A stretch of 64,000 nt of DNA. It comes from an uncultured Bacteriovoracaceae bacterium (GTDB lineage: Bacteria; Bdellovibrionota; UBA1018). Both the position numbers and the translations under genes were made by a program. The stretch is from NCBI GenBank assembly GCA_964364175.1, contig CAYILR010000020.1, positions 7,302-71,301 on the forward strand. The letters are read 5' to 3'. The notes beneath the pieces are model-generated. The model ran no database searches. It was given only the letters and a program-made list of their open reading frames with translations, and was not told the origin of the DNA. Positions within the stretch are counted from its first letter, which is position 1. The number at the start of each line of letters is the position of its first letter. Shown one piece after another: positions 7,747 through 39,521 of this stretch.

Positions 7747-7747
<1 letters not shown>
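7316..7747 (-). CDS. Lys/Ala-rich basic protein (histone H1-like N-terminus), function unknown
   Basis: The N-terminus is TKTTKKKPVAIAKETKSETKSAKAPAKASKK. The gene lies immediately downstream of, and is coupled to, the sigma-54 activator gene. Confidence 0.45.
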
Positions 7748-9405
<1,658 letters not shown>

Positions 9406-16173: not shown

Positions 16174-17118
16174 ATGCGGAGCGGAGGGGGAGCACAGAGC
16201 CAGATGAATCTAGAATCCATTGTTCGCGGTGAATTTGTGATTAATGCGGCGTACGGCATCTTGGGGCTAGCGGTTTTTATCGTCGCTCGAATGATCTTGC
16301 AGGAGCAAGAGACTCGCGCTGCCCAGGACAATATGGACGATCGCGACCGCAAGCCCAGCAGTGGCTTGGTGGGGCTGACTCGTCCATTTTTCACGCAATA
16401 TATTGTTCCCATGGTGCGAGGAAAGGCGTTTTGGGACAATAAGCGCCGTGATTTCAGACGCTTGATTATTTCTGCAGGCTTAAAAGAAGAATTAACTCCG
16501 GATGAATTCATTGCGTTCAAATTTTTCCTGATCGTATTTTTCCCATTAGTGGGCGGGATTTTGAAGGCGATGGATATGCTCGACGTCAGTGCTTTGACGG
16601 TTTTGGGCTCTGGAGTCGCAGGATGGTTTTATCCGAATTTCTGGGCAAATGGTCGAGTGGCGCGACGTCAAAAAGATATTCTGAAAGCAATGCCATTCAT
16701 CGTGGATTTGCTCGCACTTTCGACTGAAGCAGGATTGGATTTCGTCGGTGCGATCGGAAAGGTTTGCGAAAAGGCTGTTCCCAGTCCCCTGGTTGAGGAA
16801 TTGGGGCAAATGTTGAAAGAAATCAAAGTGGGATCCTCACGCCAGGAAGCGCTTCGCGAGATGTCGCTTCGGATCAATATGAAAGAAGTCAGTTCTTTCG
16901 TCGCGATTCTGATTTCAGCCGACCAAATGGGGGCGTCGATCGGAAAAACTCTTCGTCAACAATCTGAACAAATTCGAAACGCACGTATTATCGCTGCGGA
17001 AAAAGCGGGTGCTGCTGCATCACAAAAAGTCTTGTTGCCCATGGTGATATTTATTCTACCATGTGTATTTATTATGATTTTCGGACCGTTCGTTCTGGAG
17101 ACGCTCAATCAAAAATAA
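16174..17118 (+). CDS. tadC: Tad pilus assembly protein TadC (type II secretion system F family)
   Basis: It has a T2SS-F domain with 3-4 TM helices and is paralogous to the TadB gene at 31382. The true start may be MNLES at 16204. Confidence 0.75.
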   Translation: MRSGGGAQSQMNLESIVRGEFVINAAYGILGLAVFIVARMILQEQETRAAQDNMDDRDRKPSSGLVGLTRPFFTQYIVPMVRGKAFWDNKRRDFRRLIISAGLKEELTPDEFIAFKFFLIVFFPLVGGILKAMDMLDVSALTVLGSGVAGWFYPNFWANGRVARRQKDILKAMPFIVDLLALSTEAGLDFVGAIGKVCEKAVPSPLVEELGQMLKEIKVGSSRQEALREMSLRINMKEVSSFVAILISADQMGASIGKTLRQQSEQIRNARIIAAEKAGAAASQKVLLPMVIFILPCVFIMIFGPFVLETLNQK

Positions 17119-22492: not shown

Positions 22493-23211
22493 ACTTACCT
22501 GTCAAAGCACAGGCTGTCTTTCATTCGCCAGGGAAAAGGAAAATCCAGGAGGATTTCGCTTTGAGCATGCCTCAGAAATCTATCTTTGTCATGTGTGACG
22601 GATTTGGAGGAGGAAACTCTGGAATTCAAGCAGCGAAATCCGCTTGCGATTCTGTAAAAGGGTTTTTGGAGAAAGAGGCGGGGGATTTAGAGGCGACTCT
22701 TCCATTCGTGCTGCGAAGCTACTACTCATTGGCCGGAAATGTTTTGTTTAATGCTCTGATTCACGCAAATCGGAAGGTCAATCTGCTGAACAAGGGCAAG
22801 AATGTTCATGAAAAAGGCGGAGCTTCTGTGCTGGCCGGATTCATGGATGGGGATTTGCTGGCTTTGGCAAATGTCGGAGCCTGCACAGCATGGCTAATCA
22901 GGGATGGGGGTGCTACCGAGATCGTTGTGCCCAGAACGTATGGACGATTGGTGAATCCATTTCATGATGGCCCTGATTTGTACGGCCAAGCGCCTCTCAT
23001 GGCTGTAGGGATGGGCGAGGATGTTGAGCCGGAGATTTTTGAATGCAGGTTGCATTCAGGGGATTGCGTTCTTCTGATGACCGATGGGGTTACAGCTGAA
23101 GAGCGGGGTAAACTATTTCAGTTGATTCCGGATGGTCCTCAGGCCATCGAAAAAAATCTGAAAAATCAAAAATTTGATGACAATGCCTCTGTTTTAGCCA
23201 TTTATTTCTAA
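22489..23211 (+). CDS. PP2C-family Ser/Thr protein phosphatase
   Basis: It has the PP2C motifs MCDGFGGGNSG and LLMTDGV, and it overlaps the preceding FHA gene by 4 bp. Confidence 0.8.
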   Translation: MNLPVKAQAVFHSPGKRKIQEDFALSMPQKSIFVMCDGFGGGNSGIQAAKSACDSVKGFLEKEAGDLEATLPFVLRSYYSLAGNVLFNALIHANRKVNLLNKGKNVHEKGGASVLAGFMDGDLLALANVGACTAWLIRDGGATEIVVPRTYGRLVNPFHDGPDLYGQAPLMAVGMGEDVEPEIFECRLHSGDCVLLMTDGVTAEERGKLFQLIPDGPQAIEKNLKNQKFDDNASVLAIYF

Positions 23212-24422: not shown

Positions 24423-24614
24423 ATGAGCATCCAAGCATTTCTCAAAAAGCTTTGGAAAGACGATCAGGGGCAATCGACGACGGAATACATCCTGATTCTT
24501 TCTGTGGTCGTGATGATCGCGATGAAATTCAGAAAAGAATTCGGCGACCGTTTGACCAAAATCACGGGTAAACTCGGTGAAGAAATTGAATCACAAACTT
24601 CTCAGGGCAACTAG
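24423..24614 (+). CDS. flp: Flp family type IVb pilin
   Basis: The 63-aa product carries the Flp motif GQSTTEYILIL and a hydrophobic stretch. Confidence 0.8.
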   Translation: MSIQAFLKKLWKDDQGQSTTEYILILSVVVMIAMKFRKEFGDRLTKITGKLGEEIESQTSQGN

Positions 24615-24807
24615 CAGGCTCTTGAAGGACGAAAGCGGCCAAGCAATCACGGAGTACATGCTCCTCTTATCAGCATGTGTTGTAGGTGCAGCTACGTTTA
24701 CTCGCAAATTGCTCGGAGTTCTGGATTTAGGGATCGCACGTCTGGGCGGACAACTCGAACAAGATCTTAAAACCGGAAGGACTGGCTTGAGTGCATGGAA
24801 AAACTGA
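24577..24807 (+). CDS. Flp family pilin, second paralog
   Basis: It carries the motif GQAITEYMLLL. The annotated ATG overlaps flp-1, so the true start may be a downstream TTG. Confidence 0.6.
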   Translation: MKKLNHKLLRATSRLLKDESGQAITEYMLLLSACVVGAATFTRKLLGVLDLGIARLGGQLEQDLKTGRTGLSAWKN

Positions 24808-25336
24808 GCTTTTTCAAGGCGCAGTCATTGCCATCTCGCTCTTAGCAGCGGGATCGGATTTGGTTCGAGGAAAAATTTACAACTTATTGACCATACCAGC
24901 CCTCATCGCTGGTGTGGTTTTTTCGTTTTGGGTGGGAGGCTGGGAGGCTGGGCTCAACAGTGGGCTTGGAATCGCGGCCGGATTGCTCCTCTATGGCTGG
25001 ATGTTTTGGATTGGAGTCATGGGAGGCGGGGACGTGAAGCTGCTCATGGCATTGGGTGCTTGGGGAGGAATAGGCTATGTCGTTGAAACAGGTTTGGTTG
25101 CTGTTTTTCTGGGTGGGTTGTTAGGAGCCATTACCCTTGTTTTCAAGGGTCGAATGAAAAGTTTCATTGAGAAAATCAGGATGACATTGATGAGCGTGGT
25201 CGTGAAGCAGCTCGAATATATCCCTCCGAAAATCGATTACAAATTGACGATGCCCTACGGAGTTCCTATTGCCATCGCGGCGATTTGGTCAGCATTCGCG
25301 GACCCACTGGCTCAGCTGGGATTGAAACTATGGTGA
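24791..25336 (+). CDS. cpaA: Prepilin peptidase CpaA/TadV (A24 family)
   Basis: It is a multi-TM protein with the conserved motif GGGDVKLL. Confidence 0.8.
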   Translation: MHGKTELFQGAVIAISLLAAGSDLVRGKIYNLLTIPALIAGVVFSFWVGGWEAGLNSGLGIAAGLLLYGWMFWIGVMGGGDVKLLMALGAWGGIGYVVETGLVAVFLGGLLGAITLVFKGRMKSFIEKIRMTLMSVVVKQLEYIPPKIDYKLTMPYGVPIAIAAIWSAFADPLAQLGLKLW

Positions 25337-25605
25337 GAGACAGAAAAGACTCAGAGAGCGGTCAGGCTATCGTCGAGTATATTCTGATGATGTCCGTCGT
25401 TGTGATGGGTTTCATGCTGCTCTCTCGTGGATTGGTTAAAATTAAATTTGCGGAAAAGATGATGAGTCCGATTACCGGAACCTATGCTCGAACCTACCAA
25501 TACGGCCATCCCAAGGGAAAAGGTTATGACGATGGGGGTCCAGAAAATCATCCCCGTGCGAGGGGCGGCAATAATTTCCGACTATTTTTAAATCCAAGAT
25601 GGTGA
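25330..25605 (+). CDS. Flp/TadE-like prepilin, third paralog, with an extended C-terminus
   Basis: The ORF track starts at 25285, but the likely start is MVRDRKD at 25330. It carries the motif SGQAIVEYILMM. Confidence 0.5.
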   Translation: MVRDRKDSESGQAIVEYILMMSVVVMGFMLLSRGLVKIKFAEKMMSPITGTYARTYQYGHPKGKGYDDGGPENHPRARGGNNFRLFLNPRW

Positions 25606-26174
25606 AAAAATTAGATCAGATGAGATTCAGTAAACGCCGTAAAAAAAATGAATCGGGGCAAACCACAGTCGAATTTGCCCTGACTTTGGTTTTTGCGATG
25701 TCGGTCGTATTTTTTTACATCCAGCTCAGCCTGGTTTTGGCTTTTAGTAATTATGTCCAATACGCCACTTTTATGGCAGCGAGAGCCTACTATGCGGGAA
25801 GTGCTTCGCACGGTGATCAAATCAAAAGAGCAGAAAATGTCATCAAGCGTATGCTCAAAAGGGGCGTTGACGCCCCCGGAGCAGATCGATTTCCGTCTAT
25901 AGCCAAAGGTACTGGAGATGGCGATCTCAAAGGTGCTAAAATCGGACCTCATGACAAATTTAGCCCGACAACAAGGGACTATAGTTGGCTGGAGGGAGTC
26001 CGATACACATTTAGGAGCCGCATTTTCATGATCCCCATGGGGGGGTCTCAGAAAAGTGACAAGGTCAATTCTGTGACACTAACGTCGGAAAGCTGGCTCG
26101 GACGGGAACCTTCGGTAGATGATTGTGCTGGATACATGTCAACATTCCCAGCGATTATTGACAACGGCTGCTGA
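25599..26174 (+). CDS. TadE-like pseudopilin
   Basis: The N-terminal TadE-like motif is GQTTVEFALTL followed by a TM segment. Confidence 0.65.
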   Translation: MVKKLDQMRFSKRRKKNESGQTTVEFALTLVFAMSVVFFYIQLSLVLAFSNYVQYATFMAARAYYAGSASHGDQIKRAENVIKRMLKRGVDAPGADRFPSIAKGTGDGDLKGAKIGPHDKFSPTTRDYSWLEGVRYTFRSRIFMIPMGGSQKSDKVNSVTLTSESWLGREPSVDDCAGYMSTFPAIIDNGC

Positions 26175-26685
26175 CGAGGCAGGCCAAAGTGTCATTGAAT
26201 TTATTTTCATGCTGCCGCTGATGGTGGGCATGGCCGTTATTCTTCTTCGGGTCAATACGGTGATTCAAATTGGAATCGTGAATCAGAAATATGCGCGTGC
26301 GCAAGCACTTTGGATGGCATTCAATAGTGCGTATTATCCAAGGGCCGAGGACGTTATAAAAGATTTTATACCCAACAAATATAATAAAATGGTCATTGGT
26401 GTTGGGGGCGAGCAAATCCCTGAAGAGGGGCTTGGAGTTCCTCCCGCTAGCACCTACAAAATTGCCAGAACCAAACGAACAGAAAAAATTGGTAGCACTG
26501 CCGATCAAGAAGAACCGAAAGAACGAATCGAGGTTCGAGTGAGAAATACGGTCACGCTTTGCACGCAGCTCAATTTTTTCAGGATCGGCACTACTGAAAC
26601 ACCCGCGAACCCGGCCAATCCTGAATATCGCGTTCCACCCGAGGGCGTGGGAATGGATTTCTGTAGGGGGCCAAGTGAACAATAA
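26119..26685 (+). CDS. TadE/TadF-like pseudopilin
   Basis: It carries GQSVIEFIFMLPLMV. The annotated start overlaps the upstream gene by 56 bp, so the real start is likely the TTG at about 26158. Confidence 0.6.
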   Translation: MIVLDTCQHSQRLLTTAADEAGQSVIEFIFMLPLMVGMAVILLRVNTVIQIGIVNQKYARAQALWMAFNSAYYPRAEDVIKDFIPNKYNKMVIGVGGEQIPEEGLGVPPASTYKIARTKRTEKIGSTADQEEPKERIEVRVRNTVTLCTQLNFFRIGTTETPANPANPEYRVPPEGVGMDFCRGPSEQ

Positions 26686-27511
26686 AGCATTAACTCTTTC
26701 GCTCGTCATGGCAGTCATCGCGGTGTTTTTCGTGCAAAGCTACGTCACGAGCATCGAGGAAGAGGCGCGCAAAAAATTTGGGACCGAGGTTCTTGTGGTC
26801 AAGGCGAAACGAGACATCAAGGAGCAAGAGACCATCAACGAAACGCATTTGCAGCTAGTGGCCATCCCAAAAACATTTCTGGAACCTGCATCCGTGTTCT
26901 TTGAGAAAAAAGAAGAAGATGCTGAGTCCCGCAAGGGCATGGCTGCGCTTTCTGGAACGGTTGCGATGGTACCGATCAAAAGTGGTGAGCAAATGACTTA
27001 CAACAAAATCGTGGAGCCGAGCATACGCACTGGGCTGGCTCCGCAGATTGCTCCAGGACGCAGAGCGATCTCTGTCACAGTGAGCGATGTCACCGGAGTC
27101 TCAAAATTAGTTAAACCCGGCGATCGGATCGATCTGGTGGCCGTGATGGACACAGGGGGCGGGAAAGAAAACAGAATTGCAAAAACCATCCTTCAGGACG
27201 TTGTAATTTTGGCAGTGGGGAAGAACGTGACCAATAACGTTCCACGCATTCTTCAGGATGATGGTTCAGGTAAACCTAGGGTCAAATCATTGGTAGAGGA
27301 CACAAGCTTCGGAACCATCACATTGGAGCTCGATCCCACCCAAAGCCAGGCACTGGCACTGGTCATGACTAACTCCGAAAACGTTTTGGTGGTGACACTC
27401 AGGAACAATGACGACATCGATCGTCAGGCAACCGGTGTCACTACTTTGAATGATGTTTTGGGTGCAGATGTTGCAAAGCGGGCACCCGCAGGAGCAGGTG
27501 GAAAAAAATGA
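26675..27511 (+). CDS. cpaB: Flp pilus assembly protein CpaB/RcpC
   Basis: It has an N-terminal TM anchor followed by a SAF-like domain and a CpaB C-terminal domain. Confidence 0.8.
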   Translation: MNNKALTLSLVMAVIAVFFVQSYVTSIEEEARKKFGTEVLVVKAKRDIKEQETINETHLQLVAIPKTFLEPASVFFEKKEEDAESRKGMAALSGTVAMVPIKSGEQMTYNKIVEPSIRTGLAPQIAPGRRAISVTVSDVTGVSKLVKPGDRIDLVAVMDTGGGKENRIAKTILQDVVILAVGKNVTNNVPRILQDDGSGKPRVKSLVEDTSFGTITLELDPTQSQALALVMTNSENVLVVTLRNNDDIDRQATGVTTLNDVLGADVAKRAPAGAGGKK

Positions 27512-29205
27512 TGATGAGTTTCATCGGGACTAAACCCCTTCGGGTATGCTTACTCTTTCTTTGGATAGCATCGATGGGGCAGGTGTATGCTCAGGATGCG
27601 GCCGCACCTGCAGCAAGTGCTGACAGCACCGAGCAACAGTTTGAAGGTGGATCCAACAAGGGCATGGGCGCAGTGGCTGTTCCTGGTAAAAAAAATTACA
27701 GACGTTCTCGATTAACTCACGATGAGTCCGAAGGAAAAGCGGACAAGCGCTATGTGTTGCTCGCGACAGGCGAAGATCGAGCGGTCGATCTGGACTTTGA
27801 GGCCAACGCGGGTGCAAACGGAATTTCCATTGGTAACCCTCAAGTGGTGACCACGACGTTGGTGAAAATTGGTGAGAAGCGGCAAATTGTTTTTAAACCT
27901 CTGAAGGCCGGAGAGACCAACGTCACCGTTCGCGACAATGATGGAACATTGAGGCTGATTTTTGCAGTTCGCGTGTCAGGTTCCAATATGCTGAGAAGCG
28001 CGGGTGAGTTGCGCGAATTGCTCAAAGACATTGAAGGCATCGAGATCAAAATCGTGGGTCCGAAAATCATCGTCGATGGGGAGATACTTGTTCCCGGAGA
28101 TTATGCACGCATGATTTCTGTGATTTCAGACCCAGTCTATGCGCCCAATATTATGAATTTGACCACACTTTCTCCCCTGGCGATGACGATGCTCGCAGAA
28201 AGAATCCAACAAGACATCAGCACTTTCGCGGAGAACGTCAAAACTCGAGTGGTCAATGGGATGATTTTTTTGGAGGGAGAAGTTGACGACGTGGATAAAG
28301 CCAGGCGCGCAGCTGAGGTCGCCAAGCTGTACCTGCCTGAAGCAAAACCAGGAAACCCGATTCAAAGCCGAGATCCGACTGCGCAAGTGATTCAAAATCG
28401 CGGTTTGGTTCAAAACTTCATCGTTGTGACACCTCCGCCGCCTAAGAAACAAGAAAAATTAGTTCGTGTGACCATTCATTTTGTCGAGTTGGCGAAGGAT
28501 TACACCAAAGTATTCGGGTTCAAATGGCAGCCGGGATTCACCGCGGACCCACAAATCACAATTGGAACCACTCAAACAGGTGGCACAGGTGCGCAGGCGA
28601 ATGGCAGCAACGGAAACGCTTCTTTTACCGCAACGATTTCCAGCTTGTTCCCAAAGCTCAGCAACGCTCAAAACGCAGGTTATGCCAGAATTTTAAAAAC
28701 AGGCACTCTGATGACTCGCAGCGGACAGCCCGCCACGCTCAATGAACAAACTAATATTCCATTCAGTGTCATGGGACCCAACGGACAGGCCGCCTCCACT
28801 CAAGCGAATGTGGGCTTGACGGTTGCTGTTACTCCTCTGATCCTAGGGCAAAGCGAAGATATTCAGCTCGATTTAGATCTGAACCAAATCAATCTGACTG
28901 GAAAAAGCGGATCGGTTCCCATTACCGCCTCGCATGCGATCAAAACAAAACTCTATGTAAAATCCAGCGAGAGCGCTGCTGTCGCTGGTGTGATTTCGCA
29001 AGACGTCGGAACTGATTTCAACAAGGACGATCCGAGCGCCGTTGCCCAGGGTGGGCAGACGAGTCCGCTGTTCACGCTCATGCATTCGAAGTCCTACCGA
29101 AAAAAGAAATCCCAATTCGTTATTTTTGTGACTCCACAAATCATCGAAAACGCATCTGACGGCAGCGATGATATGAAGAAAAATTTCAGAGTGAAGGTGA
29201 AATAA
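27508..29205 (+). CDS. cpaC: Tad secretin CpaC/RcpA
   Basis: It has a signal peptide and a C-terminal secretin domain (LFTLMHSKSYRKKKSQFVIFVTPQII). Confidence 0.85.
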   Translation: MMMSFIGTKPLRVCLLFLWIASMGQVYAQDAAAPAASADSTEQQFEGGSNKGMGAVAVPGKKNYRRSRLTHDESEGKADKRYVLLATGEDRAVDLDFEANAGANGISIGNPQVVTTTLVKIGEKRQIVFKPLKAGETNVTVRDNDGTLRLIFAVRVSGSNMLRSAGELRELLKDIEGIEIKIVGPKIIVDGEILVPGDYARMISVISDPVYAPNIMNLTTLSPLAMTMLAERIQQDISTFAENVKTRVVNGMIFLEGEVDDVDKARRAAEVAKLYLPEAKPGNPIQSRDPTAQVIQNRGLVQNFIVVTPPPPKKQEKLVRVTIHFVELAKDYTKVFGFKWQPGFTADPQITIGTTQTGGTGAQANGSNGNASFTATISSLFPKLSNAQNAGYARILKTGTLMTRSGQPATLNEQTNIPFSVMGPNGQAASTQANVGLTVAVTPLILGQSEDIQLDLDLNQINLTGKSGSVPITASHAIKTKLYVKSSESAAVAGVISQDVGTDFNKDDPSAVAQGGQTSPLFTLMHSKSYRKKKSQFVIFVTPQIIENASDGSDDMKKNFRVKVK

Positions 29206-29206
29206 A

Positions 29207-31369
29207 ATGGCGGGACATTTAATCGCAGTTGTAGGCGGAAAGGGTGGGGTTGGAAAAAGCGTCTTCGCTGCCAATCTTGCTATTGCGCACTTACAGAACT
29301 TTAAACAAAGACCATTGATCATAGATCTGGATCTTTCCAGTTTGGGTGATCAGAATATTATTCTTGGCCAGAATCCACCCAAAACGATCATTGAACTCAC
29401 CAAGGCACAAGGAATTAGCATCGATCCCAAAGGGCTTGCACCGTTTATGCTAAACGCGCCTGCAGGATATTCTTTTATCGGTGCACCCAAAGATGCGATT
29501 CTCGCTCGCGATTTGGACATGGATGGCCTGGGACGGCTGATGAAATCTATTACCAATGTATTTAATTTGGTGGTTGTGGATTGTGGAAATGGAATGGATC
29601 CCCATGCACTAAAAGTCATGGAATATGCCACGGCAATTTTTGTGGTGACTACAGCAGACGTGATTGTCATCAACCAAACCAAGAGAATTCTGACTAAGAT
29701 TCAAGAGCTGCTTTTTCCGCCAGAAATGGTTCAAATTGTGATCAATAGATATTCCGCAAATAGCATCGTCAATCCACAGCTGATTCAGAAAAACCTGGGT
29801 CGAGCTATTTTCGGAGCAATCCCCGATGATCCCATGACAGCAGATAGCTCGCTGGCAAAAAGCACGCCGATTTGCCTGGCAGTGCCGAGTTCTCCCTCGG
29901 CCAAGGCGTATCATGAGATGGTTCGAAAAATGCAACAAGTGGGGTTGCTGGATAAATTAGCGCAACTCAAAAAGCCAACAGGCGTTGTTGCAAAAGCAGC
30001 AGCGGGTGCAGGCGGTGCTGAAGCGCCTAAGGAAGGTTCTCAAGCTGCGGGAGGTCCGGGTGGACGAAGTTCTTCGGCCGCAGCGGATCCATGGACTTCG
30101 ATGAAATTGAGAATTCACAAAGGTCTAGTGGAGCAGATGGATCTTAAGAAAATGACTACGAATACGGATGATCCCAAGCAAAAATCCATCCTGAGAGAAA
30201 AAACACAAAAAGTAATCTTGGATATTTTGGCAGTGGAGGATGCTGGAGCCCTTTTGGGAACTCGTGAGCTGAAGGCGCAAATTGTGAAAGAAGTCCTGGA
30301 TGAGGCTTTGGGGCTTGGTCCCCTCGAGGACTTTCTCGCTGACGATAGCGTGACTGAAATTATGGTCAACGCAAGAAATCAAATTTATCTCGAAAAAGCC
30401 GGCAAGGCCATGCTCTCAAAAATAACTTTTTCGAGCGAGCTTCAAATGATGAACATTGTAGAACGGATTGTGACACCGCTCGGGCGTCGCGTGGACGAGA
30501 AAGTTCCCTATTGCGACGCTCGTTTGCAGGATGGGTCTCGAGTGCATGTGATTATCCCTCCTTTGGCGCTTCGAGGGCCAACTATTACAATTCGAAAATT
30601 TCCAAAAAAGAGAATTTTGCCAGAAGACTTGGTGACCTTCGGATCGATGACTCAGGAGATTTGTGATTTCCTCCGATGTTGTGTCGAGGCAAAATTAAAT
30701 ATTGTGGTTTCTGGTGGTACTGGATCAGGAAAAACTACTTTGCTGAACGTGCTATCCAGCTTTATTCCAGCGACAGAGCGTATCATTACTGTGGAGGATT
30801 CCGCAGAGCTTCAGTTGGTTCAGGATCATGTGGTTCGTCTCGAAACACGACCCAAGAACATTGAAGGTGAGGGTGAAGTCAGTATTCGAGATTTGATTAA
30901 ATGCTGCCTCCGAATGAGGCCAGATCGTATCGTAGTCGGTGAGTGTCGGGGCGGAGAGACGCTGGATATGTTGCAGGCAATGAATACAGGGCACTCAGGA
31001 TCCCTCACGACGTTGCATGCCAATAATCCTCGCGAGTGCCTGGGTCGTATCGAGACACTGTGTATGATGGCAGGATTGGCGCTGCCACTCAAAGCAATTC
31101 GAGAAACATCAGCGGCGGCCGTCAATTTGATTATTCAACAAAGTAGATTGAATGATGGAGCCAGAAAGGTGACTTACATCACTGAGGTCACCGGGATGCA
31201 GGGCGAGGTCATTAGCTTGCAGGATATTTTCTTATTTAAACAAGAGGGGCTTGATAAAAAAAGGAAAATCATCGGTCGATTTGTTCCTACCGGGTTTATT
31301 CCGAAATTTGTTGAGGATATGGAAGCTAAGGGTATGAAAATTTCTAGAGGACTTTTTGCCGCAAAATAA
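29207..31369 (+). CDS. Fusion protein: N-terminal MinD/ParA-like CpaE(TadZ) ATPase domain plus C-terminal CpaF/TadA secretion ATPase
   Basis: Residues 1-260 carry a deviant Walker A (GGKGGVGKS). After a Gly/Ala-rich linker, residues 300-720 form a complete CpaF with Walker A GGTGSGKTT and the motif GHSGSLTTLHANNPRE. The reading frame is continuous for 720 codons. Confidence 0.8.
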   Translation: MAGHLIAVVGGKGGVGKSVFAANLAIAHLQNFKQRPLIIDLDLSSLGDQNIILGQNPPKTIIELTKAQGISIDPKGLAPFMLNAPAGYSFIGAPKDAILARDLDMDGLGRLMKSITNVFNLVVVDCGNGMDPHALKVMEYATAIFVVTTADVIVINQTKRILTKIQELLFPPEMVQIVINRYSANSIVNPQLIQKNLGRAIFGAIPDDPMTADSSLAKSTPICLAVPSSPSAKAYHEMVRKMQQVGLLDKLAQLKKPTGVVAKAAAGAGGAEAPKEGSQAAGGPGGRSSSAAADPWTSMKLRIHKGLVEQMDLKKMTTNTDDPKQKSILREKTQKVILDILAVEDAGALLGTRELKAQIVKEVLDEALGLGPLEDFLADDSVTEIMVNARNQIYLEKAGKAMLSKITFSSELQMMNIVERIVTPLGRRVDEKVPYCDARLQDGSRVHVIIPPLALRGPTITIRKFPKKRILPEDLVTFGSMTQEICDFLRCCVEAKLNIVVSGGTGSGKTTLLNVLSSFIPATERIITVEDSAELQLVQDHVVRLETRPKNIEGEGEVSIRDLIKCCLRMRPDRIVVGECRGGETLDMLQAMNTGHSGSLTTLHANNPRECLGRIETLCMMAGLALPLKAIRETSAAAVNLIIQQSRLNDGARKVTYITEVTGMQGEVISLQDIFLFKQEGLDKKRKIIGRFVPTGFIPKFVEDMEAKGMKISRGLFAAK

Positions 31370-31381
31370 GGTGAACTTGAA

Positions 31382-32242
31382 ATGAAAGTTTTAGGATTAT
31401 CACTATTGGGGATAGCGATTTTTTCTATTTCCTATATTTACAGTAAAAGATTTTTGGAATGGATGCGATTTCAGTCTCTTGGAACCAGAGACTATCTGGT
31501 TGAAAAACTGGCGTCGATGTTCATCGAAGTTTCTCCTGAGAAAGTATTGATGTATTTGGTGGGCGCTAGTGTTTTTGTGGGTGGTATTTTCTTTATTCTC
31601 CTTCTCCCGAACGTTCTATTAGGTTTGTTGATTGGCGGCATTTTTGGATCTCTGGTTTGGAAAATTCCCAGGCCAGTGGTCGACAAAATGTACGAAAAGC
31701 GCGTCGACAAATTTGTCCTTCAGATGGTGGACGGATTGGGATTGATGTCTAATGGGCTCAAGTCCGGGCTGTCTGTTGTGCAAGCTTTGGGTCTGGTCGC
31801 TCAGGAAATGCCAAACCCCATTCAGCAGGAATTCAATTTGATCCTGAGCGAGAACAAAGTGGGGGTATCCATCGAGGATGCATTCTTGAATCTATCAAAA
31901 AGGATCAAGGCGGACGACGTGGAGATGTTTGTGACCTCGATCAATATTTTGAAGGAGACCGGCGGAAATTTGGCGGAAACTTTCGATACGATTGTCGTTA
32001 CCATCCGAGAACGGATCAAGGTTCAGGCCAAAATATCGTCCATGGTCGCGCAAGGATTTTACCAGGGTGTCTTTGTGATGATGATTCCTCCCATATTGGG
32101 CGTGGTTTTTTACCAAACTGATCCCGAATTCATGAAACCCCTCTTCACAACTGCGATTGGATGGGGGATGATTTTGTTGATGGTCATTTTGGAGACGATC
32201 GGATTTTTTGTGATTATGCATATTATCAAAATTGAGGTTTGA
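31382..32242 (+). CDS. tadB: Tad pilus assembly protein TadB (T2SS-F family)
   Basis: It has a T2SS-F domain, three TM helices, and is a paralog of tadC. Confidence 0.8.
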   Translation: MKVLGLSLLGIAIFSISYIYSKRFLEWMRFQSLGTRDYLVEKLASMFIEVSPEKVLMYLVGASVFVGGIFFILLLPNVLLGLLIGGIFGSLVWKIPRPVVDKMYEKRVDKFVLQMVDGLGLMSNGLKSGLSVVQALGLVAQEMPNPIQQEFNLILSENKVGVSIEDAFLNLSKRIKADDVEMFVTSINILKETGGNLAETFDTIVVTIRERIKVQAKISSMVAQGFYQGVFVMMIPPILGVVFYQTDPEFMKPLFTTAIGWGMILLMVILETIGFFVIMHIIKIEV

Positions 32243-33924
32243 AAATGAGGTCAGAGAATATGAAAAAATTATGCGTCATTTTGTTGACTGTTTTTGCAGC
32301 TCAAGCTGCAGAAGCGAATGTGAGCCTGAAAAACGGGAATTTTTTCATTGGATACACAGATCTCATTTATTCTGGTGGATTTGAGCCGAAGGTCGAGCGG
32401 GTTTATAATTCCAAGACGGCTCACAATGGGATGTTTGGACATGGATGGGGCAATGAATACGAAGTCTATTTGTCCGTAGGACCTGACGGCAGCGTCACTG
32501 TGCACGAGTACGGTGGAGGTGCAGAAAATAGATTCACTCCAGTCGGATTCAAGGGTGACGATGTAAAAGCAGCGGTGGAAAAAATTGCGGCTGCTGCAAA
32601 AAAAGTGGGTGGAATCGGCAGCAATGATCAGCTGGACGGGTACAAAAAGAGACTTTTGTCGGATGCCAGCTTTAGAAATGAGGAGTGGGAGAAATATCAT
32701 AAGCAGGGCAAGTTGGAGGCTAAGACCCTTGCCGACGGCACCCAATTGCAGTCAGTTCAGTTCAACTACCAATACATCACTAAAGTTAAATCAGGCTATG
32801 TGCGCAGCTTTGAGAGCGGGAAATCAGAATTTTTTGATGCCAGAGGGCACTTGAGCAAAATTTCTGATAAAAACAATAACTACATTAATTTGACCTATAG
32901 CCAAGACGGAAAACTTCAAAAGATCGTCGACAATTTCAATCGAAAAATTTTCTTCACATTCAACAACAAAGGAAAAGTGGAGAAAATTCAAGGTGATGAT
33001 GGGAAAGAGGCAACCTACAAGTACAACGACGAGGGAGAGCTAGCTTATAGCAAGGACGTGGATGGCAATGTCTACAATCACAAATACTCCAGCGATCATT
33101 TTCACAACATGACAGAGATTGCCTACGCAGATAAAACTGCGTTGCAAATTGCTTATTATGACCGGGATAAATTCCAGAACGTAAAAAGCATCAAAGATCG
33201 TGATGGCAGCATGACCAGCTATGAGTACAGCATGGATAAGTCTGCAGGCCGCACAGCTGTTTCTGTAAAAGTCGTTTCAGCTGACAAGAAATTAATTTCA
33301 GAGAGCCGTTATGAGTATTACACCAAAAGCAAAGGCGATGGCGAGCCCTGGACATACAAAATGATCGCTGTGATCGATGGAGATAAAACTGAAACAGTCT
33401 ATAATGAGTCTGCCGGTCTGCCCGTCTCCATAAAAAAGGGAGATGAGGAAGTTTCATTCGATTACGATGCAAAAGGCCGAGTGACCAAGAAAGTTGCTTC
33501 GAACGAAGTGACAGAGTTGACCTACGATAAAAATGCCGGAAAAGTCAGTCGAGTGGTTCGTTATCCTAAATCGAGCCCCAAGCAATCGGTGTGGTCAGAC
33601 TTTCAGTACGACGATAAAGGCAATTTACTGACCGCGAAAAATTCTGCAAGCAAGGCAGTGAGATTATTTTATGATACCAACGGTCGAATCAAGAGCATGG
33701 TGGATCAAGATAAGAAACGAATCGATTTCAAATATAACGAGCACTCGAAGCCTGTGGAAATTATTTACCAATCCTTGGGTTCGATCACTGTGACCTATGG
33801 AAGCAATGGGGATATCAAAAAAGTAGAAAGCTCCGCTGGCAGGAAAATTGCGCTTCAGGTGACGTCTGCATTCCAGAATCTATTGGAAATTATTAAACCG
33901 GCAGGTGTGAATCTGTCATTCTAA
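32239..33924 (+). CDS. Secreted YD-repeat (RHS-repeat-like) protein, translationally coupled to tadB
   Basis: It has a signal peptide and multiple Y-x-YD-x-x-G-(R/K)-L type repeats (FDARGHLSKI, YKYNDEGELAYS, FDYDAKGRVTKK, YDTNGRIKSM). It overlaps tadB by 4 bp. Confidence 0.65.
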   Translation: MKMRSENMKKLCVILLTVFAAQAAEANVSLKNGNFFIGYTDLIYSGGFEPKVERVYNSKTAHNGMFGHGWGNEYEVYLSVGPDGSVTVHEYGGGAENRFTPVGFKGDDVKAAVEKIAAAAKKVGGIGSNDQLDGYKKRLLSDASFRNEEWEKYHKQGKLEAKTLADGTQLQSVQFNYQYITKVKSGYVRSFESGKSEFFDARGHLSKISDKNNNYINLTYSQDGKLQKIVDNFNRKIFFTFNNKGKVEKIQGDDGKEATYKYNDEGELAYSKDVDGNVYNHKYSSDHFHNMTEIAYADKTALQIAYYDRDKFQNVKSIKDRDGSMTSYEYSMDKSAGRTAVSVKVVSADKKLISESRYEYYTKSKGDGEPWTYKMIAVIDGDKTETVYNESAGLPVSIKKGDEEVSFDYDAKGRVTKKVASNEVTELTYDKNAGKVSRVVRYPKSSPKQSVWSDFQYDDKGNLLTAKNSASKAVRLFYDTNGRIKSMVDQDKKRIDFKYNEHSKPVEIIYQSLGSITVTYGSNGDIKKVESSAGRKIALQVTSAFQNLLEIIKPAGVNLSF

Positions 33925-33954: not shown

Positions 33955-34155
33955 ATGAAAAGGAACATAACTATTCTAATTTTAAGTGCGTGGCTGGTGA
34001 GTGCAGGGATTTGCCTCGCAGATGAAACCAGTCCTCGATGTGATGCTCGAGCTGGCAATGCGGGAAACAAACCAGGAACTGTGCCAGCAGGAACTTCGAC
34101 TCAAGGCAACCAGGGTTCGACATCAGCCGATAGACCCACTCCGACCCATAGCTGA
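33955..34155 (+). CDS. Small secreted low-complexity protein
   Basis: A strong AGGAGG RBS lies 9 nt upstream, and the product has a signal peptide. Confidence 0.35.
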   Translation: MKRNITILILSAWLVSAGICLADETSPRCDARAGNAGNKPGTVPAGTSTQGNQGSTSADRPTPTHS

Positions 34156-34173: not shown

Positions 34174-35427
34174 TTAGCTCGCCTCTCGCTTAGTCATTTG
34201 CTCGGTCAGGTTGTTGACCAATCCGGCTGCTTCCTTGACTGCCATAAAGTCCTTCTTGGAAATGGCTCGCATGCAGCCGCGCAGAATTTCCGGATTGAAT
34301 TGACGCGGAAACGTCCCAGACTTTTCAAGTGCTTTGAGTGCTTGAACCGCCTCTTCTAAACCGCGCTTTTTACCATCCCAGCGGCCAGAACACATGGAAT
34401 CTATCAAATCGGCAACTGCAATCAATTGAGAGAAGTCGTTGATGTCGAAGCTTCTGATTTTTCCAGGATAGCCGCTGCCATCAAATTTTTCGTGATGCTG
34501 CCCAACATAGAGACGAATTTTTTCTGATAGTTCTGGCGCCAACTCCTGAATCATGTCGACAGAAAGCGAAACATGCTTCTCGTATTCTCCAGAGAGCGCT
34601 GGGTTGGATAGCGAGCTCCAAAGCAAGGATGCGTTTTCTTGTTTCATTTGGCCCAGTCCCACATCGTGAAGCAGTCCGGCCGTCGCAAGCTCCCACAAAT
34701 CAGTTCTTTGAATGTTTCCGAAAGACATAGCGAATAGAACGGCAAGAGTGCCCACATTGGCTGAGTGTTCCAGGTCTTTGTCCTGGTGTGCGCTTTCCCA
34801 GATTTGGTCTAAGACGGCCTTAGTTTCTTTTTTTAATTCAGGCGGTGGTGCTACAAAGTGTTTTACAAAATCCCTGGCATCGTCTTTTTTCTGGCTGTCA
34901 GCTTTTTTATCGGCTTCATTTTTACTTTCTGGCCCAAAAGTTTGCTGGAGAACGTCATGTGCTGCTTCCGATATGGCTTTCTTTTTCTGCTCTTCTGTCA
35001 ACTCTTTGGATTCCGCAATTTCAACGCTGGCTACCGCTGCAGGAGGTGCTGAGGGGGTCTCCTTCTCCTCTTCGACAGGGGGAGGAGGTGGCTCTGCTTT
35101 TGTCGAGGCTGCGACGGTTTCTTGGGTACTCACGGGGGGAGGTGCGTTTGTCTTTGCATCGGTCTGTAAAGCGATTTCTGCTGGCCCCTTTTCGCTGAGA
35201 TAAGCCAAGTAGGCCTCTTTTTCAGAGTGATGAATCCAGATTTTTTGGATTCCTCGCTTGGAATAGTCAGCAATAAATTCATCAGTAGGGGAAAAACCTT
35301 CTTTTCTCCAAAGCAGGACATGGTTATTGCTTTCAAAATAGAGATAAATATCGAAAGTGATCGGAACGAAGGGCTTGATATTTCCTAATTCAATACTGAA
35401 GTAGTCGCGAATATCCCTGGATTTCAT
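34174..35427 (-). CDS. HD-GYP domain phosphodiesterase (c-di-GMP)
   Basis: The HD motif LLHDVGLG and the GYP motif HHEKFDGSGYP are present. The N-terminal regulatory domain and a Pro/Glu-rich linker are unusual. Confidence 0.75.
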   Translation of the reverse strand: MKSRDIRDYFSIELGNIKPFVPITFDIYLYFESNNHVLLWRKEGFSPTDEFIADYSKRGIQKIWIHHSEKEAYLAYLSEKGPAEIALQTDAKTNAPPPVSTQETVAASTKAEPPPPPVEEEKETPSAPPAAVASVEIAESKELTEEQKKKAISEAAHDVLQQTFGPESKNEADKKADSQKKDDARDFVKHFVAPPPELKKETKAVLDQIWESAHQDKDLEHSANVGTLAVLFAMSFGNIQRTDLWELATAGLLHDVGLGQMKQENASLLWSSLSNPALSGEYEKHVSLSVDMIQELAPELSEKIRLYVGQHHEKFDGSGYPGKIRSFDINDFSQLIAVADLIDSMCSGRWDGKKRGLEEAVQALKALEKSGTFPRQFNPEILRGCMRAISKKDFMAVKEAAGLVNNLTEQMTKREAS

Positions 35428-36488
35428 GTCTTGACACCAACTCCGCCGGATTTCATCTCTTGCACTAATTTTTCGCTGTCCTTGAGCTTTTGTTCCAAGC
35501 TGCGAATTCGCTCATCTAGGGGATTCTTGGATGACAAAGGTTCTCCGACTGCAGTTTCCTTTACCAAAGCCACTGACAAGGGTTCGATCCAGAATGTTTT
35601 CAGCTCATCAGGGTTTTCGAGCGAGGGAGCGTGAGCGCTGAACCCTGCAATCATTTCCACTTGCCGTGTTTCAGGGATGAAATGCACACGAAGCCAATCC
35701 GTCGCTTTTCTCAGAAGATAAGCAGCACTCCATGTGGGAGATAAGTTTGGCCAGAAACAGGACAATGCATCTTTGGGGGAATTCCATCCAGCCATGGTGA
35801 ATACGAATCGAAATACAAGCGAATGAGCATCGCCTGAAATATTCAGAGCTCCCTTGGATTGAGAAGAAAGATTGAAAGACAACAAAGCGATGAGGGCAGA
35901 CTGAATTTGCAATGAGCGGGAATTCCAGGGGGCTTGTTCCAGCAAGACCAAGTCACTCATCAATTTTCCAGCGAAAGTGGGGCTATGGGTTTCAACTTCA
36001 GTGAACCAGATTTTTGATTTTTCATCCAAAATCGGTTCAATTCCCCAACGTAATTTGTCAGATGCCACAGCCAGGGTCATTCGGATGGATTCTTCCCTGG
36101 ATATTTTATAGTAATCCAGAATAATTGCTCGATTCTGCCCCGCCTGCTCGCCTAGCTCGTAAGGCATCACGCGATCTCCAAAATAACCCGCAAAAGTTGG
36201 CCCGCTAGTTCGAGTCAAACCGTAAAAAGCCTCTATTTTGCTCCATGCCAAGTAGCGGTACCAGGGCACCAATACGAGATGAAAAGGTTCTTTCGCTGCC
36301 TCCAGCGACTTCAGAACACCTGCCTCGTCACTATCGGCAGGAAGGTATTGGATATTCGCGTAGGCACCGAGCGAGTAAAATGCGCGGTCAAGAATTTGAC
36401 CCCTCTCGCGGGAAAGCCTGGAATCGCTTAAAATAGCTATTCTGGGTTGGCCTGGACTCATCATATCCGGATCGGATTTTTTAAACAA
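35424..36488 (-). CDS. Hypothetical protein coupled to the HD-GYP gene
   Basis: It overlaps the HD-GYP gene by 4 bp. I recognise no known domain. Confidence 0.45.
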   Translation of the reverse strand: MFKKSDPDMMSPGQPRIAILSDSRLSRERGQILDRAFYSLGAYANIQYLPADSDEAGVLKSLEAAKEPFHLVLVPWYRYLAWSKIEAFYGLTRTSGPTFAGYFGDRVMPYELGEQAGQNRAIILDYYKISREESIRMTLAVASDKLRWGIEPILDEKSKIWFTEVETHSPTFAGKLMSDLVLLEQAPWNSRSLQIQSALIALLSFNLSSQSKGALNISGDAHSLVFRFVFTMAGWNSPKDALSCFWPNLSPTWSAAYLLRKATDWLRVHFIPETRQVEMIAGFSAHAPSLENPDELKTFWIEPLSVALVKETAVGEPLSSKNPLDERIRSLEQKLKDSEKLVQEMKSGGVGVKT

Positions 36489-36544
36489 AGTTTAAAATTT
36501 ATAAGCGTGAAACTTCGGATAAAGTTAAGCTATCCTATAATGGA

Positions 36545-38185
36545 ATGGGTGGTTCTTTACGCAGAAAGTTGCAGTTTTTCGGTTTTTCTCTTGTGGCGCT
36601 GTGCCTCCTGGCATCTTCTTTGAGTCTGTACCGGATTGCCGAGGTAGGGCGCTCGTTGCAGTCAGTCAACAGCGTCTCGATTCCCCTGGGCCATCTTTTG
36701 ATGCAGCTCAAGAGTGACGCAGATGTGCTGAAGCGCGAAACTGAACGAAGTTTGGGAAAATCACATTGGGACGATCCTCATTGGAAACCTCGTGCGGTTC
36801 CTGAATGGATTATCAACATCGTTCGCGAAGAGATTTTGAAGTTGGACCACCTGGTCCAATCCAGCTCTGATTTGAGCCAAGAATGGAAGGACTGGAGCCT
36901 GCGTGTCAGCAGCGATTTGGAAAGGCTGCGTACGGACGCGCACCGGATTCATCAACTGATTGAAAAGCGAAATATTCTGGAAGCCTCCCAGCTGCAGCAA
37001 AAATGGCAAGCTGGAATGGAAGATTGGGCGAGACAGCTGAATTGGGGAATTCGCGAGTCGGATCATCTTTCACAAATCAAGTTTGCGCAATCCATGGAAA
37101 AAGTTTTGCAACTTCGCACAGGACTGGAAACGGTTTTGATGATTGTGGTATTGCTTTCGATTCTCATGATTTGGATGGGTGAGAAAACGCTGCGGCCTCT
37201 AGGGCAGCTGACGCAGCTTGCGAGGGAAATTTCACAAAGGGGTCTTCGCCGTCAGGATAAAGCCCTGCTTCCAAAAATTTATACACAGAGACAAGATGAA
37301 ATCGGTCAGCTTGCACAAGAATTTCAAAGAATGGCGACCGCGCTACTAGAAAGAGAAAAAGACCTGGAAATGCAAAAAAGCTGTATTCAGCAGCAGAATA
37401 CACAGCTCAAGGAAATGGTAGAGCTCCAGCGACGCCTCCGCCATGCGGAAGATCTTGCGGCAATGGGAAGAATGTCAGCTCAAGTAGCGCATGAAGTCCG
37501 AAACCCTTTGCATTCAATCGGCCTTGAGGCTGAACTTGCAGCTGAGTTAGCTCAGAATCACGGGATTCCAGAACTCAGGCAGTCCGCGTTGTCGATCTTA
37601 GCGTCAGTGGATCGGCTGGAGACCATCACTGACAATTATTTAAAGCTATCGCGATTGTCCTCTGGAAATAAAAAACAATTTCCCATCAGTGATTTATTGC
37701 AGTCCGTGTTGGCAACTTATGCACCTGTTTGCGAGGCGCAAGGAGTTAAGGTGAATTGGTCGATCGGTGAGCGTGCGCTTCAGATCGAGGGAGATCAAAG
37801 TCTGCTCGAACAAGTTCTAGGTAATCTATTGAGAAATTCTTTGCAGGCCCTGGAAGGTGCTCATACTTCGAATCCAAAAATTGAATTAAGTGTGGGTGCA
37901 ACCGAGGCGGGGGGTTCGTGGCTTTGCATTCATGATAATGGGCCTGGAATCAGCCAAGAGCAGCAATGCAAACTTTTTATTCCATTTGAAACCACCAAGG
38001 CACAGGGAACAGGACTGGGGTTATCATTTTCTAAAAAAGTAATGGAAGATCACGGCGGGCGAATTGAATATAGTGGCGATGATGCTGGTCAAACTGCGGG
38101 CGCATCGTTTTTGCTCATTTTTCCGGCTTATTTGAACACGGAGGGACATGTCGATCATGGCATCGAGCATCTTGTTAGTGGATGA
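36545..38185 (+). CDS. Sensor histidine kinase
   Basis: It has an N-terminal TM helix, a periplasmic/HAMP region, an H-box (AHEVRNPLHSI) and a HATPase G-box (GTGLGLSFSKKVMEDHGGRI). Confidence 0.8.
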   Translation: MGGSLRRKLQFFGFSLVALCLLASSLSLYRIAEVGRSLQSVNSVSIPLGHLLMQLKSDADVLKRETERSLGKSHWDDPHWKPRAVPEWIINIVREEILKLDHLVQSSSDLSQEWKDWSLRVSSDLERLRTDAHRIHQLIEKRNILEASQLQQKWQAGMEDWARQLNWGIRESDHLSQIKFAQSMEKVLQLRTGLETVLMIVVLLSILMIWMGEKTLRPLGQLTQLAREISQRGLRRQDKALLPKIYTQRQDEIGQLAQEFQRMATALLEREKDLEMQKSCIQQQNTQLKEMVELQRRLRHAEDLAAMGRMSAQVAHEVRNPLHSIGLEAELAAELAQNHGIPELRQSALSILASVDRLETITDNYLKLSRLSSGNKKQFPISDLLQSVLATYAPVCEAQGVKVNWSIGERALQIEGDQSLLEQVLGNLLRNSLQALEGAHTSNPKIELSVGATEAGGSWLCIHDNGPGISQEQQCKLFIPFETTKAQGTGLGLSFSKKVMEDHGGRIEYSGDDAGQTAGASFLLIFPAYLNTEGHVDHGIEHLVSG

Positions 38186-39521
38186 TGATTTGCAAGGATT
38201 GGAATCAACTCGAAAAATCCTCGAGCTGGAATCATTTCAAGTGGATGTGGCCAAGGATGGGCAAGAAGCCTTGGAGAAGGTACGCTCAAAAAATGCTGCT
38301 GGCGCGATGTACGATTTGGTGATTACGGATGTCCGCATGCCCAAGATGAGTGGATTGGAGTTTCTTCGTGCTTTGCAGCTATGTGGGCTGGAAGTGCCTG
38401 TTGTCCTGATGACCGCATTTGGCCGAGTGGAAGAGGCTGTTTGGGCCATGAAAATAGGCGCAGTAGATTTTCTTACGAAGCCATTTAAGCGCCACGCTCT
38501 TTTGACGGCGGTCCGAGCAGCACTCCAAAAAGCAAAGCCAAAAGGGAAGGAGCAAAAAGGCCTGAATCCCCCGCTGCAGGCCGATGATTTGGTGGGTGAG
38601 TCTCAGGTGATGGAAAAACTGAAACAGCAAATTTCCCAAGTTGCAGCGACTCCAGCCACGATTTTGTTGACTGGGGAAAGCGGGACAGGAAAAGAAAAAA
38701 TAGCTCGGTTGATTCATCAAAAAAGTTCACGTGCAAAGCAGCCATTTCTTGCAATCAATTGTGCAGCAATGCCCGAGGCTTTGATTGAGTCTGAACTTTT
38801 TGGATTTGAGAAGGGCTCCTTTACGGGAGCCTATGCTGCGCACCGAGGGATGTTTGAAGCGGCGGATGGAGGGACTTTGCTCTTGGACGAAGTGGGGGAT
38901 ATGCCTCTTTCGTTGCAAGGAAAACTTCTCCGTGTTTTGCAGGAGAATGAAGTCAGGCGCGTGGGATCTACTCAGTCGATTCGTGTGAATGTCCGCATCA
39001 TCGCAGCAACCCATCAGGATTTGAGACAGCGTGTTGCGGAAGGAAAATTCAGGCAAGATTTGCTGTATCGTCTAGAGGTGATTGCCTTGCGAGCGCCTGC
39101 TCTCCGGGAAAGAGTTCAAGACATTCCGTTGCTCTCTGGCTTTTTTCTGAGCCGATCTTCTAAACAGCACGACAAGAAAATATCCGTCATCACTCCTGAA
39201 GTGCTGCGGATTTTCAGCGAGCATTCTTGGCCCGGAAACGTTCGAGAACTCTCCAATGTAATCGAACGTGCAGTGATTTTAGCTGAAGGCCTGGAAATCC
39301 ATCCGCAAGATCTGCCCGCATACCTTCGTGATTCAGCCATGGTATCCTCCACGGAATCATGGATAGAGTCGATTCAAATCCCAGTGGGTACGTCACTGAA
39401 GCAAGTCGAAGACCTGATGATTAAAAAGACGCTCGAAGCGACTGAAGGTGACAAGAACCTGGCCGCAAAACTGCTGGGGCTGACTTCCAGAACGATTTAC
39501 CGAAAATTAGAGAGAACCTGA
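38148..39521 (+). CDS. Sigma-54-dependent response regulator (NtrC family)
   Basis: It has a receiver domain (LLVDDD, DVRMPKMSG), an AAA+ sigma-54 domain (GESGTGKEKIARLIH, ESELFGFEKGSFTGA) and a C-terminal HTH. Confidence 0.85.
   Translation: MSIMASSILLVDDDLQGLESTRKILELESFQVDVAKDGQEALEKVRSKNAAGAMYDLVITDVRMPKMSGLEFLRALQLCGLEVPVVLMTAFGRVEEAVWAMKIGAVDFLTKPFKRHALLTAVRAALQKAKPKGKEQKGLNPPLQADDLVGESQVMEKLKQQISQVAATPATILLTGESGTGKEKIARLIHQKSSRAKQPFLAINCAAMPEALIESELFGFEKGSFTGAYAAHRGMFEAADGGTLLLDEVGDMPLSLQGKLLRVLQENEVRRVGSTQSIRVNVRIIAATHQDLRQRVAEGKFRQDLLYRLEVIALRAPALRERVQDIPLLSGFFLSRSSKQHDKKISVITPEVLRIFSEHSWPGNVRELSNVIERAVILAEGLEIHPQDLPAYLRDSAMVSSTESWIESIQIPVGTSLKQVEDLMIKKTLEATEGDKNLAAKLLGLTSRTIYRKLERT

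Follow-up and report, generated by a model that had tools for sequence, protein, structure and literature searches.

The 64,000-nucleotide stretch of DNA analysed in this study (contig CAYILR010000020.1 of assembly GCA_964364175.1, from an uncultured Bacteriovoracaceae bacterium; hereafter, the window) carries a tad pilus locus, in which one open reading frame (ORF) appears to encode TadZA, a TadA/CpaF motor with a TadZ/CpaE ATPase tethered to its N-terminus by a linker. The protein is read as the orthologue of Bd0111 of Bdellovibrio bacteriovorus in an uncultured lineage of the Bdellovibrionota, with a probability of about 0.87. The fusion itself is confirmed as a genuine single polypeptide and is, for practical purposes, no artefact of assembly. 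It is already known, since TadZA has been described in B. bacteriovorus by Tesseur, Denise, Santin and Laloux in a preprint of July 2026 (bioRxiv 10.64898/2026.07.08.737194), in which an earlier paper is credited with the first notice of the fusion; the idea of a positioning factor tethered to the motor has also been proposed and partly tested in that organism. The additions made here to the literature are modest and comprise an orthologue, its conservation patterns, the TadZ ancestry of the N-terminal module (N-module) and the occurrence of the fusion beyond Bdellovibrionota; no new phenomenon is described.

Reading frame of the fused gene

The tadZA frame (Table 1) runs through 720 codons from an ATG start without any internal stop and codes for 720 amino acids, in agreement with the single 720-codon ORF claimed in an earlier note on this DNA. 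A protein 100% identical to it (P0001) is present in public protein databases. The full-length architecture is found in more than 120 distinct 90%-identity clusters, which display 75-81% identity to the window protein and carry the names Bdellovibrionota, Oligoflexia or Bacteriovoracaceae. In the corresponding loci of 27 related, independently assembled genomes, the frame is unbroken between the MinD-type start (MAGHIIAVVGGK…) and the stop codon of the CpaF part. The survey of homologues proposed in the earlier note has therefore returned the same fusion in 27 of 27 related genomes, with a linker of varying length.

The proportion of nonsynonymous differences (pN) is 0.20 for the N-module, 0.11 for the C-terminal module (C-module) and 0.42 for the linker, as compared to a proportion of synonymous differences (pS) of ∼0.85. 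The low pN of both modules relative to pS indicates that both are under purifying selection. As the synonymous sites are saturated at this pS, pN/pS contrasts are reported instead of the ratio of substitution rates (dN/dS).

The stop codon of the secretin gene (TAA, 29203-29205) is separated from the tadZA ATG by 1 nucleotide (nt), a spacing too tight for an N-terminal receiver-like domain (ARD) of the kind found in TadZ. The in-frame open codons upstream of the start number only 0-20 in the 27 orthologous loci, with one exception of 64. The lack of a pseudo-receiver domain, as stated in the earlier note, is borne out by both observations. The 1-nt spacing to the rcpA stop, together with the Shine-Dalgarno-like AAGGTGA, also suggests translational coupling of tadZA to rcpA.

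A free TadA could in principle be produced besides the fusion from an internal start near Met299, giving tethered and untethered motors in the same cell, which would be compatible with the TadZA reading. An in-frame ATG (M299, nt 30101) is indeed located at the beginning of the TadA module, and Met occupies this position in 26 of 28 orthologues. However, this codon is not preceded by any Shine-Dalgarno-like sequence, and codon 299 is CTC or CTA (Leu, non-initiating) in two orthologous loci (L026 and L030). Furthermore, M299 lies inside the conserved motif DPWTxMKLRIH, which is aligned to the part of Caulobacter CpaF that begins at about residue 79, and its conservation is attributed to protein structure because of its position in this motif. 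The internal start, having no Shine-Dalgarno sequence and not being kept as a start codon, is considered unsupported, and a dual output of the gene is unlikely.

Identity of the two modules and of the linker

Residues 4-263 match PF01656 (CbiA, 2e-13), TIGR01969 (archaeal MinD, 4e-22) and TIGR03815 (CpaE_hom_Actino, 1.4e-15). The catalytic and dimerisation motifs of the N-module (K12, K17, D40/D42 and D125) are intact throughout the clade of the window protein. An AlphaFold2 model based on 58 members of the family (mean predicted local distance difference test score, pLDDT, 85) contains two confident modules and a disordered linker; the N-module forms a block of pLDDT ∼85-95 through residue 250. 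Its best structural match in Foldseek is 3EA0, with a target TM-score (TMt) of 0.93 and a root-mean-square deviation of 1.7 Å.

The nearest unfused TadA proteins, which are 52-54% identical to the window protein in the motor part, were used to compare the N-module with canonical TadZ. In all three informative loci of such proteins, a canonical tadZ is located directly upstream of tadA, in the order rcpC-(rcpA)-tadZ-tadA-tadB-tadC. The three tadZ genes code for 394-431 amino acids and end 14-120 nt before tadA, and two of the products display a Response_reg-like match in addition to ParA.

An alternative origin of the N-module is a MinD/FlhG-type ATPase, recruited independently of TadZ/CpaE and fused to TadA. 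The searches with the single sequence are in favour of this origin, as the best curated-family matches are archaeal MinD (TIGR01969, 78.6 bits) and bacterial MinD, and the PDB search places archaeal MinD, 3EA0 and FlhG on top, while 3FKQ (TadZ of Eubacterium rectale) is absent from it even at E ≤ 10. The Walker A sequence KGGVGKS is also of the canonical MinD type. The remaining comparisons are against it. Among the sequences tested, the best pairwise match of the N-module is the TadZ of an unfused locus, with 81 bits as compared to 57 bits for Pyrococcus MinD. A profile of the fused N-modules yields 161-183 bits for four TadZ proteins of unfused loci (L035, L037, L038 and L039), 154 bits for 3EA0 and 113 bits for MinD. 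When the whole PDB is ranked by profile, 3EA0, which is ARD-less and has the TadZ-type Walker A KGGDGGS, comes first with 165 bits, followed by MinD/FleN/FlhG with 86-118 bits, and 3FKQ obtains 55 bits. The place of the gene, between rcpA and the tadA part, is exactly that of tadZ. The Walker A of the window protein fits the TadZ consensus K/RGGxGx[S/T], yet keeps the P-loop Lys; since KGGVGK[ST] or KGGVGRT is likewise present in the TadZ proteins of unfused loci, this feature is non-discriminating and constitutes no evidence against TadZ. It is concluded from these sequence comparisons that the N-module is probably a TadZ/CpaE ATPase domain that has lost its ARD and is closer to TadZ than to MinD, and that an independent recruitment is distinctly unlikely.

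It is very unlikely that the N-module is a decaying relic without ATPase or dimerisation function, the protein being simply a TadA. In favour of a relic, the P-loop lysine is often replaced in distant fused proteins (KGGVGQT, KGGSGVT, KGGVGAT), and ATP binding with poor hydrolysis has been reported for canonical TadZ. On the contrary, K17, though variable elsewhere in the fused family, is kept together with all other motifs in the clade of the window; the conservation of K12 reaches at least 90% in the fused family as a whole, in which G14 and G16 are invariant. The low pN against a saturated pS and the high model confidence of the N-module also argue against decay, as does the report that binding of the polarity hub RomR in B. 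bacteriovorus requires TadZ and the linker, which together suffice for it (bioRxiv 10.64898/2026.07.08.737194).

The C-module corresponds to a complete motor. Residues 342-659 match PF00437 (T2SSE, 1.5e-60) and TIGR03819 (TadA, 1.5e-94), and the module aligns to residues 79-483 of Caulobacter CpaF (9e24/8rkd) with an E value of 2e-124. Foldseek matches it to CpaF 8RJF, with a TMt of 0.80 and 47% identity. The invariant Walker A GxxGxGKTT at 503-511, E579, and H596 and H604 of the His box are intact.

The linker between the two modules is the least conserved part of the protein, with a column identity of 0.35 as compared to 0.7-0.99 elsewhere, and has a pLDDT below 50 at residues 267-287. Its length varies from 30 to 45 amino acids among the orthologues, always by whole codons. 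The possibility that cpaE and cpaF are two genes merged through a missed stop or a frameshift in this linker, whose Gly/Ala-rich, low-complexity sequence is of an error-prone kind, has practically no weight against one frame kept in 27 independent assemblies, linker lengths differing by whole codons only, more than 120 full-length protein clusters, and the full-length accumulation of a tagged TadZA (TadZA-msfGFP) in B. bacteriovorus (bioRxiv 10.64898/2026.07.08.737194).

A GGPGxRS-like motif (window 30050-30070, residues 282-288) is common to close orthologues within the otherwise variable linker and immediately precedes the conserved DPWTxMKLRIH sequence with which the TadA module begins. Docking or modification might take place at this motif, an idea that arises from the need of the linker for RomR binding in B. 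bacteriovorus.

The junction motif at the end of the N-module occupies the place of the C-terminal membrane-targeting helix of MinD/CpaE, and a short helix is predicted at residues 247-252; the motif may bind the membrane.

The composition of the protein given in the earlier note agrees with these results. Its ParA/MinD-type N-terminal part with GGKGGVGKS is recovered by three families, with the Walker A at residues 10-18, and scores as an ATPase of the TadZ kind, in line with the claimed CpaE/TadZ identity. The linker, described as Gly/Ala-rich, proves to be rich in Ala, Gly, Ser and Pro and is predicted to be disordered. The full CpaF with N-terminal domain and ATPase core is supported by the T2SSE and TIGR03819 matches and by the alignment to Caulobacter CpaF.

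The tad locus and occurrence of the fusion

The genes around the fusion constitute a complete Tad system (Table 1). Neither a separate cpaE/tadZ nor any other ParA-like or TadA-like ORF was found in the 64-kb window. The RHS gene is the next gene after tadB in all those of the 27 related loci that extend far enough, and also in L034, a locus of a 2.78-Mb Bdellovibrionaceae-type genome.

Table 1. Coordinates of the tadZA gene, its parts and the other tad genes in the window
Feature	Position	Strand	Basis or remark
tadC, second T2SSF platform protein	16174..17118	+	PF00482 2.3e-16; ∼8 kb upstream of the tad core
Two Flp-type pilin genes	24423-24614 and 24577-24807	+	G/xxxxEY processing motif by reading
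tadV prepilin peptidase	24791..25336	+	PF01478 Peptidase_A24 1.7e-13
Three pseudopilin/minor pilin genes	25285-25605, 25599-26174 (TadE-like), 26119-26685	+	leader motifs
rcpC/cpaB	26675..27511	+	TIGR03177 8e-39, PF16976 2.8e-21
rcpA/cpaC secretin	27508..29205	+	PF00263 5.8e-16, PF13629
Shine-Dalgarno-like AAGGTGA	29194..29200	+	6 nt 5' of the tadZA ATG
tadZA	29207..31369	+	one ORF coding for the TadZ-linker-TadA fusion
Probable TadZ/CpaE-type ParA/MinD ATPase module (residues 1-258), ARD-less	29207..29980	+	families, profile, structure model
Deviant Walker A GGKGGVGKS (residues 10-18; signature Lys12, P-loop Lys17)	29234..29260	+	sequence
Junction motif Q-x-x-L-L-x-x-L-A-x-L-K-K-P-T (residues 244-258)	29936..29980	+	conserved in orthologues
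Disordered Ala/Gly/Ser/Pro-rich linker (residues 259-293, ∼35 residues)	29981..30085	+	composition, model
TadA/CpaF motor module (residues 294-720), N-terminal helical domain and ATPase core	30086..31366	+	families, alignment, Foldseek
tadB platform protein	31382..32242	+	PF00482 1.1e-17
RHS/YD-repeat protein, counterpart of Bdellovibrio Bd0109 (hit locus)	32239..33924	+	PF05593, PF20148, TIGR01643

The two Flp pilin genes, with the translations …DQGQSTTEYIL… and …DESGQAITEYML…, were assigned by their motif and have no match to a hidden Markov model. The two ORFs overlap by 38 nt as listed, and translation of the second probably begins at a more downstream codon. All three pseudopilin genes carry G/Qxx[VI]E[YF] leader motifs, and the middle one matches PF07811 (TadE, 7.8e-05). 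The gene of the second platform protein, tadC, lies in the same neighbourhood, but is separated from tadB by ∼14 kb and the entire tad core.

Three genes for FHA-domain proteins (starts 17503, 19143 and 20225) and one for a PP2C phosphatase (22489) are located between tadC and the tad core (window 17503-23211). One of the FHA proteins has a PAS domain and another has two FHA domains plus TPR. This set suggests control of the pilus machine by Ser/Thr phosphorylation; no kinase was seen among the scanned neighbours of these genes. Directly after the RHS gene, a 66-codon ORF (33955-34155) codes for a signal peptide and, after it, a Gly/Thr/Pro/Ser tail of low complexity, which corresponds to the place and character of Bd0108. 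It was rejected as a Bd0108 analogue, as none of the related loci has a detectable homologue; the 91-amino-acid ORF at the equivalent place in L034 is not one either. Downstream of the locus, the region 34174-39521 contains minus-strand genes for an HD_5 (HD-GYP-like) protein and a 354-amino-acid protein of no assigned family, after which come the genes of a PilS/PilR-like pair, a HAMP histidine kinase and a sigma-54 response regulator. Other genes of the window code for a sigma-54 activator with a GAF domain (7747-9405, minus strand) and a 961-amino-acid WD40 protein (12022-14907).

The spread of the fusion was determined by searching 1.84 billion representative sequences of clusters at 50% identity. 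Out of the 143 nearest clusters that could be classified, 76 have a TadZ-like N-module fused to TadA, with identity to the window protein down to ∼38%. Two distant fused genes were inspected in their loci (L040 and L041), and both are part of tad loci without a separate tadZ. The fusion of L041 (GCA_040400605.1, 8001-10187) has 728 amino acids and the Walker A KGGLGRS; it belongs to a fully canonical tad locus, with tadB and tadC adjacent and without the RHS gene, on a contig of 253 kb. The arginyl-tRNA synthetase encoded on this contig shares 62-66% identity with Candidatus Sericytochromatia proteins. This suggests, from sequence similarity, that the fusion exists outside Bdellovibrionota, on a Sericytochromatia-like contig. 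The Atribacterota label of another fused protein rests on a contig of 3 kb only.

In L040 (7218-15627), the fused gene codes for 716 amino acids with KGGVGQT and belongs to a tad locus, the secretin not being among the called genes. Three unrelated genes stand between the ATPase gene and tadB/tadC, and a HepT/Polbeta toxin-antitoxin pair lies inside the pilin region.

A count of independent origins of the fusion on a neighbour-joining tree of the TadA modules gave a Fitch minimum of 17 changes. This count was rejected because truncated fragments had been scored as unfused, the distances were saturated and the tree had no support values. Tandem TadA/CpaF proteins, with two, three or four modules per chain of 820-1600 amino acids, were also recorded (P0121, P0122, P0124, P0125, P0127, P0132, P0137 and P0138); these chains may represent fusions of motors in tandem or errors of gene calling.

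Relation to known systems and proposed working of TadZA

TadZA of B. bacteriovorus (Bd0111) is likewise composed of an N-terminal TadZ-like module without ARD, a flexible linker and a C-terminal TadA; tadZA could not be deleted and is essential, and TadZA-msfGFP moves dynamically between the poles and favours the invasive one (bioRxiv 10.64898/2026.07.08.737194). The Bd0111 protein has been detected by mass spectrometry. A CpaE domain in CpaF has also been noted for Peredibacter starrii HCB2-198. The gene order in strain HD100 is Bd0113 rcpC - Bd0112 rcpA - Bd0111 tadA - Bd0110 tadB - Bd0109 RHS - Bd0108, and the window shares with this tad locus 1 the order rcpC-rcpA-tadZA-tadB-RHS. In both, tadC does not adjoin tadB, and FHA, TPR and histidine-kinase genes are nearby; FHA and TPR genes near the Bdellovibrio tad genes are mentioned in the same preprint (bioRxiv 10.64898/2026.07.08.737194). 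The two differ in the position of tadC, which is ∼8 kb upstream of the tad core in the window and at a distant locus in B. bacteriovorus, and in tadV, of which the window locus has its own and Bdellovibrio genomes are reported to have none. The window protein is also of a different lineage, being ∼52% identical to Bdellovibrionales-type proteins.

The orthology of the window protein to Bd0111 is deduced from three lines. The protein is 52% identical to and colinear with P0128 (Bdellovibrionales), which in turn is 70% identical to proteins named Bdellovibrio sp. or Bdellovibrionaceae (including P0313). The gene order around the fused gene of L034 is exactly that of the window, and the published description of TadZA matches. 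The two proteins would accordingly appear to be orthologues on sequence and synteny. The fused ATPase of L034 groups with Bdellovibrionaceae-type proteins, and its locus has an A24 gene too.

Canonical TadZ/CpaE, as represented by Caulobacter crescentus CpaE, Aggregatibacter actinomycetemcomitans TadZ and the proteins of the unfused loci L035, L037 and L038, has the same ParA/MinD fold and deviant Walker A as the N-module, obtains 161-183 bits with its profile, and is encoded at the same place, directly upstream of tadA and downstream of rcpC/rcpA. The N-module differs from it in having no N-terminal ARD and in being covalently joined to TadA. The motor part shares 47% identity over the whole structured region, and all ATPase motifs, with Caulobacter CpaF (8RJF, 8RKD and 9E24). 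The latter has a free, non-aligning N-terminus of ∼78 residues where the window protein has the TadZ linker. No solved structure is closer to the N-module than 3EA0, the "ParA family ATPase" from Chlorobium tepidum, which likewise lacks the ARD (245 amino acids), but is a stand-alone protein with an atypical Walker A without the P-loop lysine. MinD and FlhG (FleN) display the same fold, the Walker A KGGxGK[ST] and the switch I/II aspartates; their profile scores are lower, and the window gene lies in a tad locus without minC/minE or flagellar context.

Some observations weigh against the TadZA reading. 3FKQ, the only solved protein named TadZ (from a Firmicute), is a weak match to the profile with 55 bits, due to which membership of the TadZ family is based on the unfused TadZ proteins of diderms, identified by their context. 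The link to Bd0111 runs indirectly, through P0128 and synteny, and the gene of RomR is absent from the 64-kb window. The hydrophobic moment of the junction motif is moderate (0.40-0.46) and its amphipathicity unremarkable, owing to which a membrane role of the motif is put forward conditionally. Dimerisation with ATP, membrane binding through the junction motif, binding of a RomR-like landmark and polar localisation are all inferred for the window protein from analogy.

The fusion has most likely arisen through loss of the stop codon and the short spacer between adjacent tadZ and tadA genes, together with loss of the ARD of TadZ; this route is explained by the position of tadZ directly upstream of tadA in unfused relatives. 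As judged from the work on Bdellovibrio and Caulobacter, the TadA modules would form a hexameric motor under the TadB/TadC platform and drive both extension and retraction of the Flp pilus, as the CpaF hexamer of Caulobacter does. The tethered TadZ modules would dimerise with ATP and sit at the membrane around the motor. Together with the linker, they may dock on a landmark at the pole, which in B. bacteriovorus is RomR, and the machine would thereby be built and kept at one pole. The fusion would fix the TadZ:TadA ratio at 1:1, i.e. six TadZ per hexamer, and guarantee their co-localisation, whereas six CpaE dimers (12 copies) have been fitted in situ as a ring around the CpaF hexamer of Caulobacter.

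A wider reading, which is rather doubtful, regards the TadZ-TadA fusion as a widespread and possibly recurrent alternative Tad design, in which ATP-dependent TadZ clamps gate the motor cycle. The near-invariant signature lysine and the dispensable P-loop lysine would then mark TadZ as an ATP-dependent dimerisation clamp, and each hexamer would have three such dimers, linking adjacent TadA protomers. If this were true, the nucleotide state of TadZ would act as the gate between extension and retraction, besides determining where the motor is located.

With regard to the TadZA reading, the natural covalent fusion is strong "Rosetta-stone" evidence for a direct contact between TadZ/CpaE and TadA/CpaF. 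With its fixed 1:1 ratio and without the ARD, it also offers a simplified system for understanding the positioning, and perhaps the regulation, of a pilus motor by a ParA/MinD ATPase.

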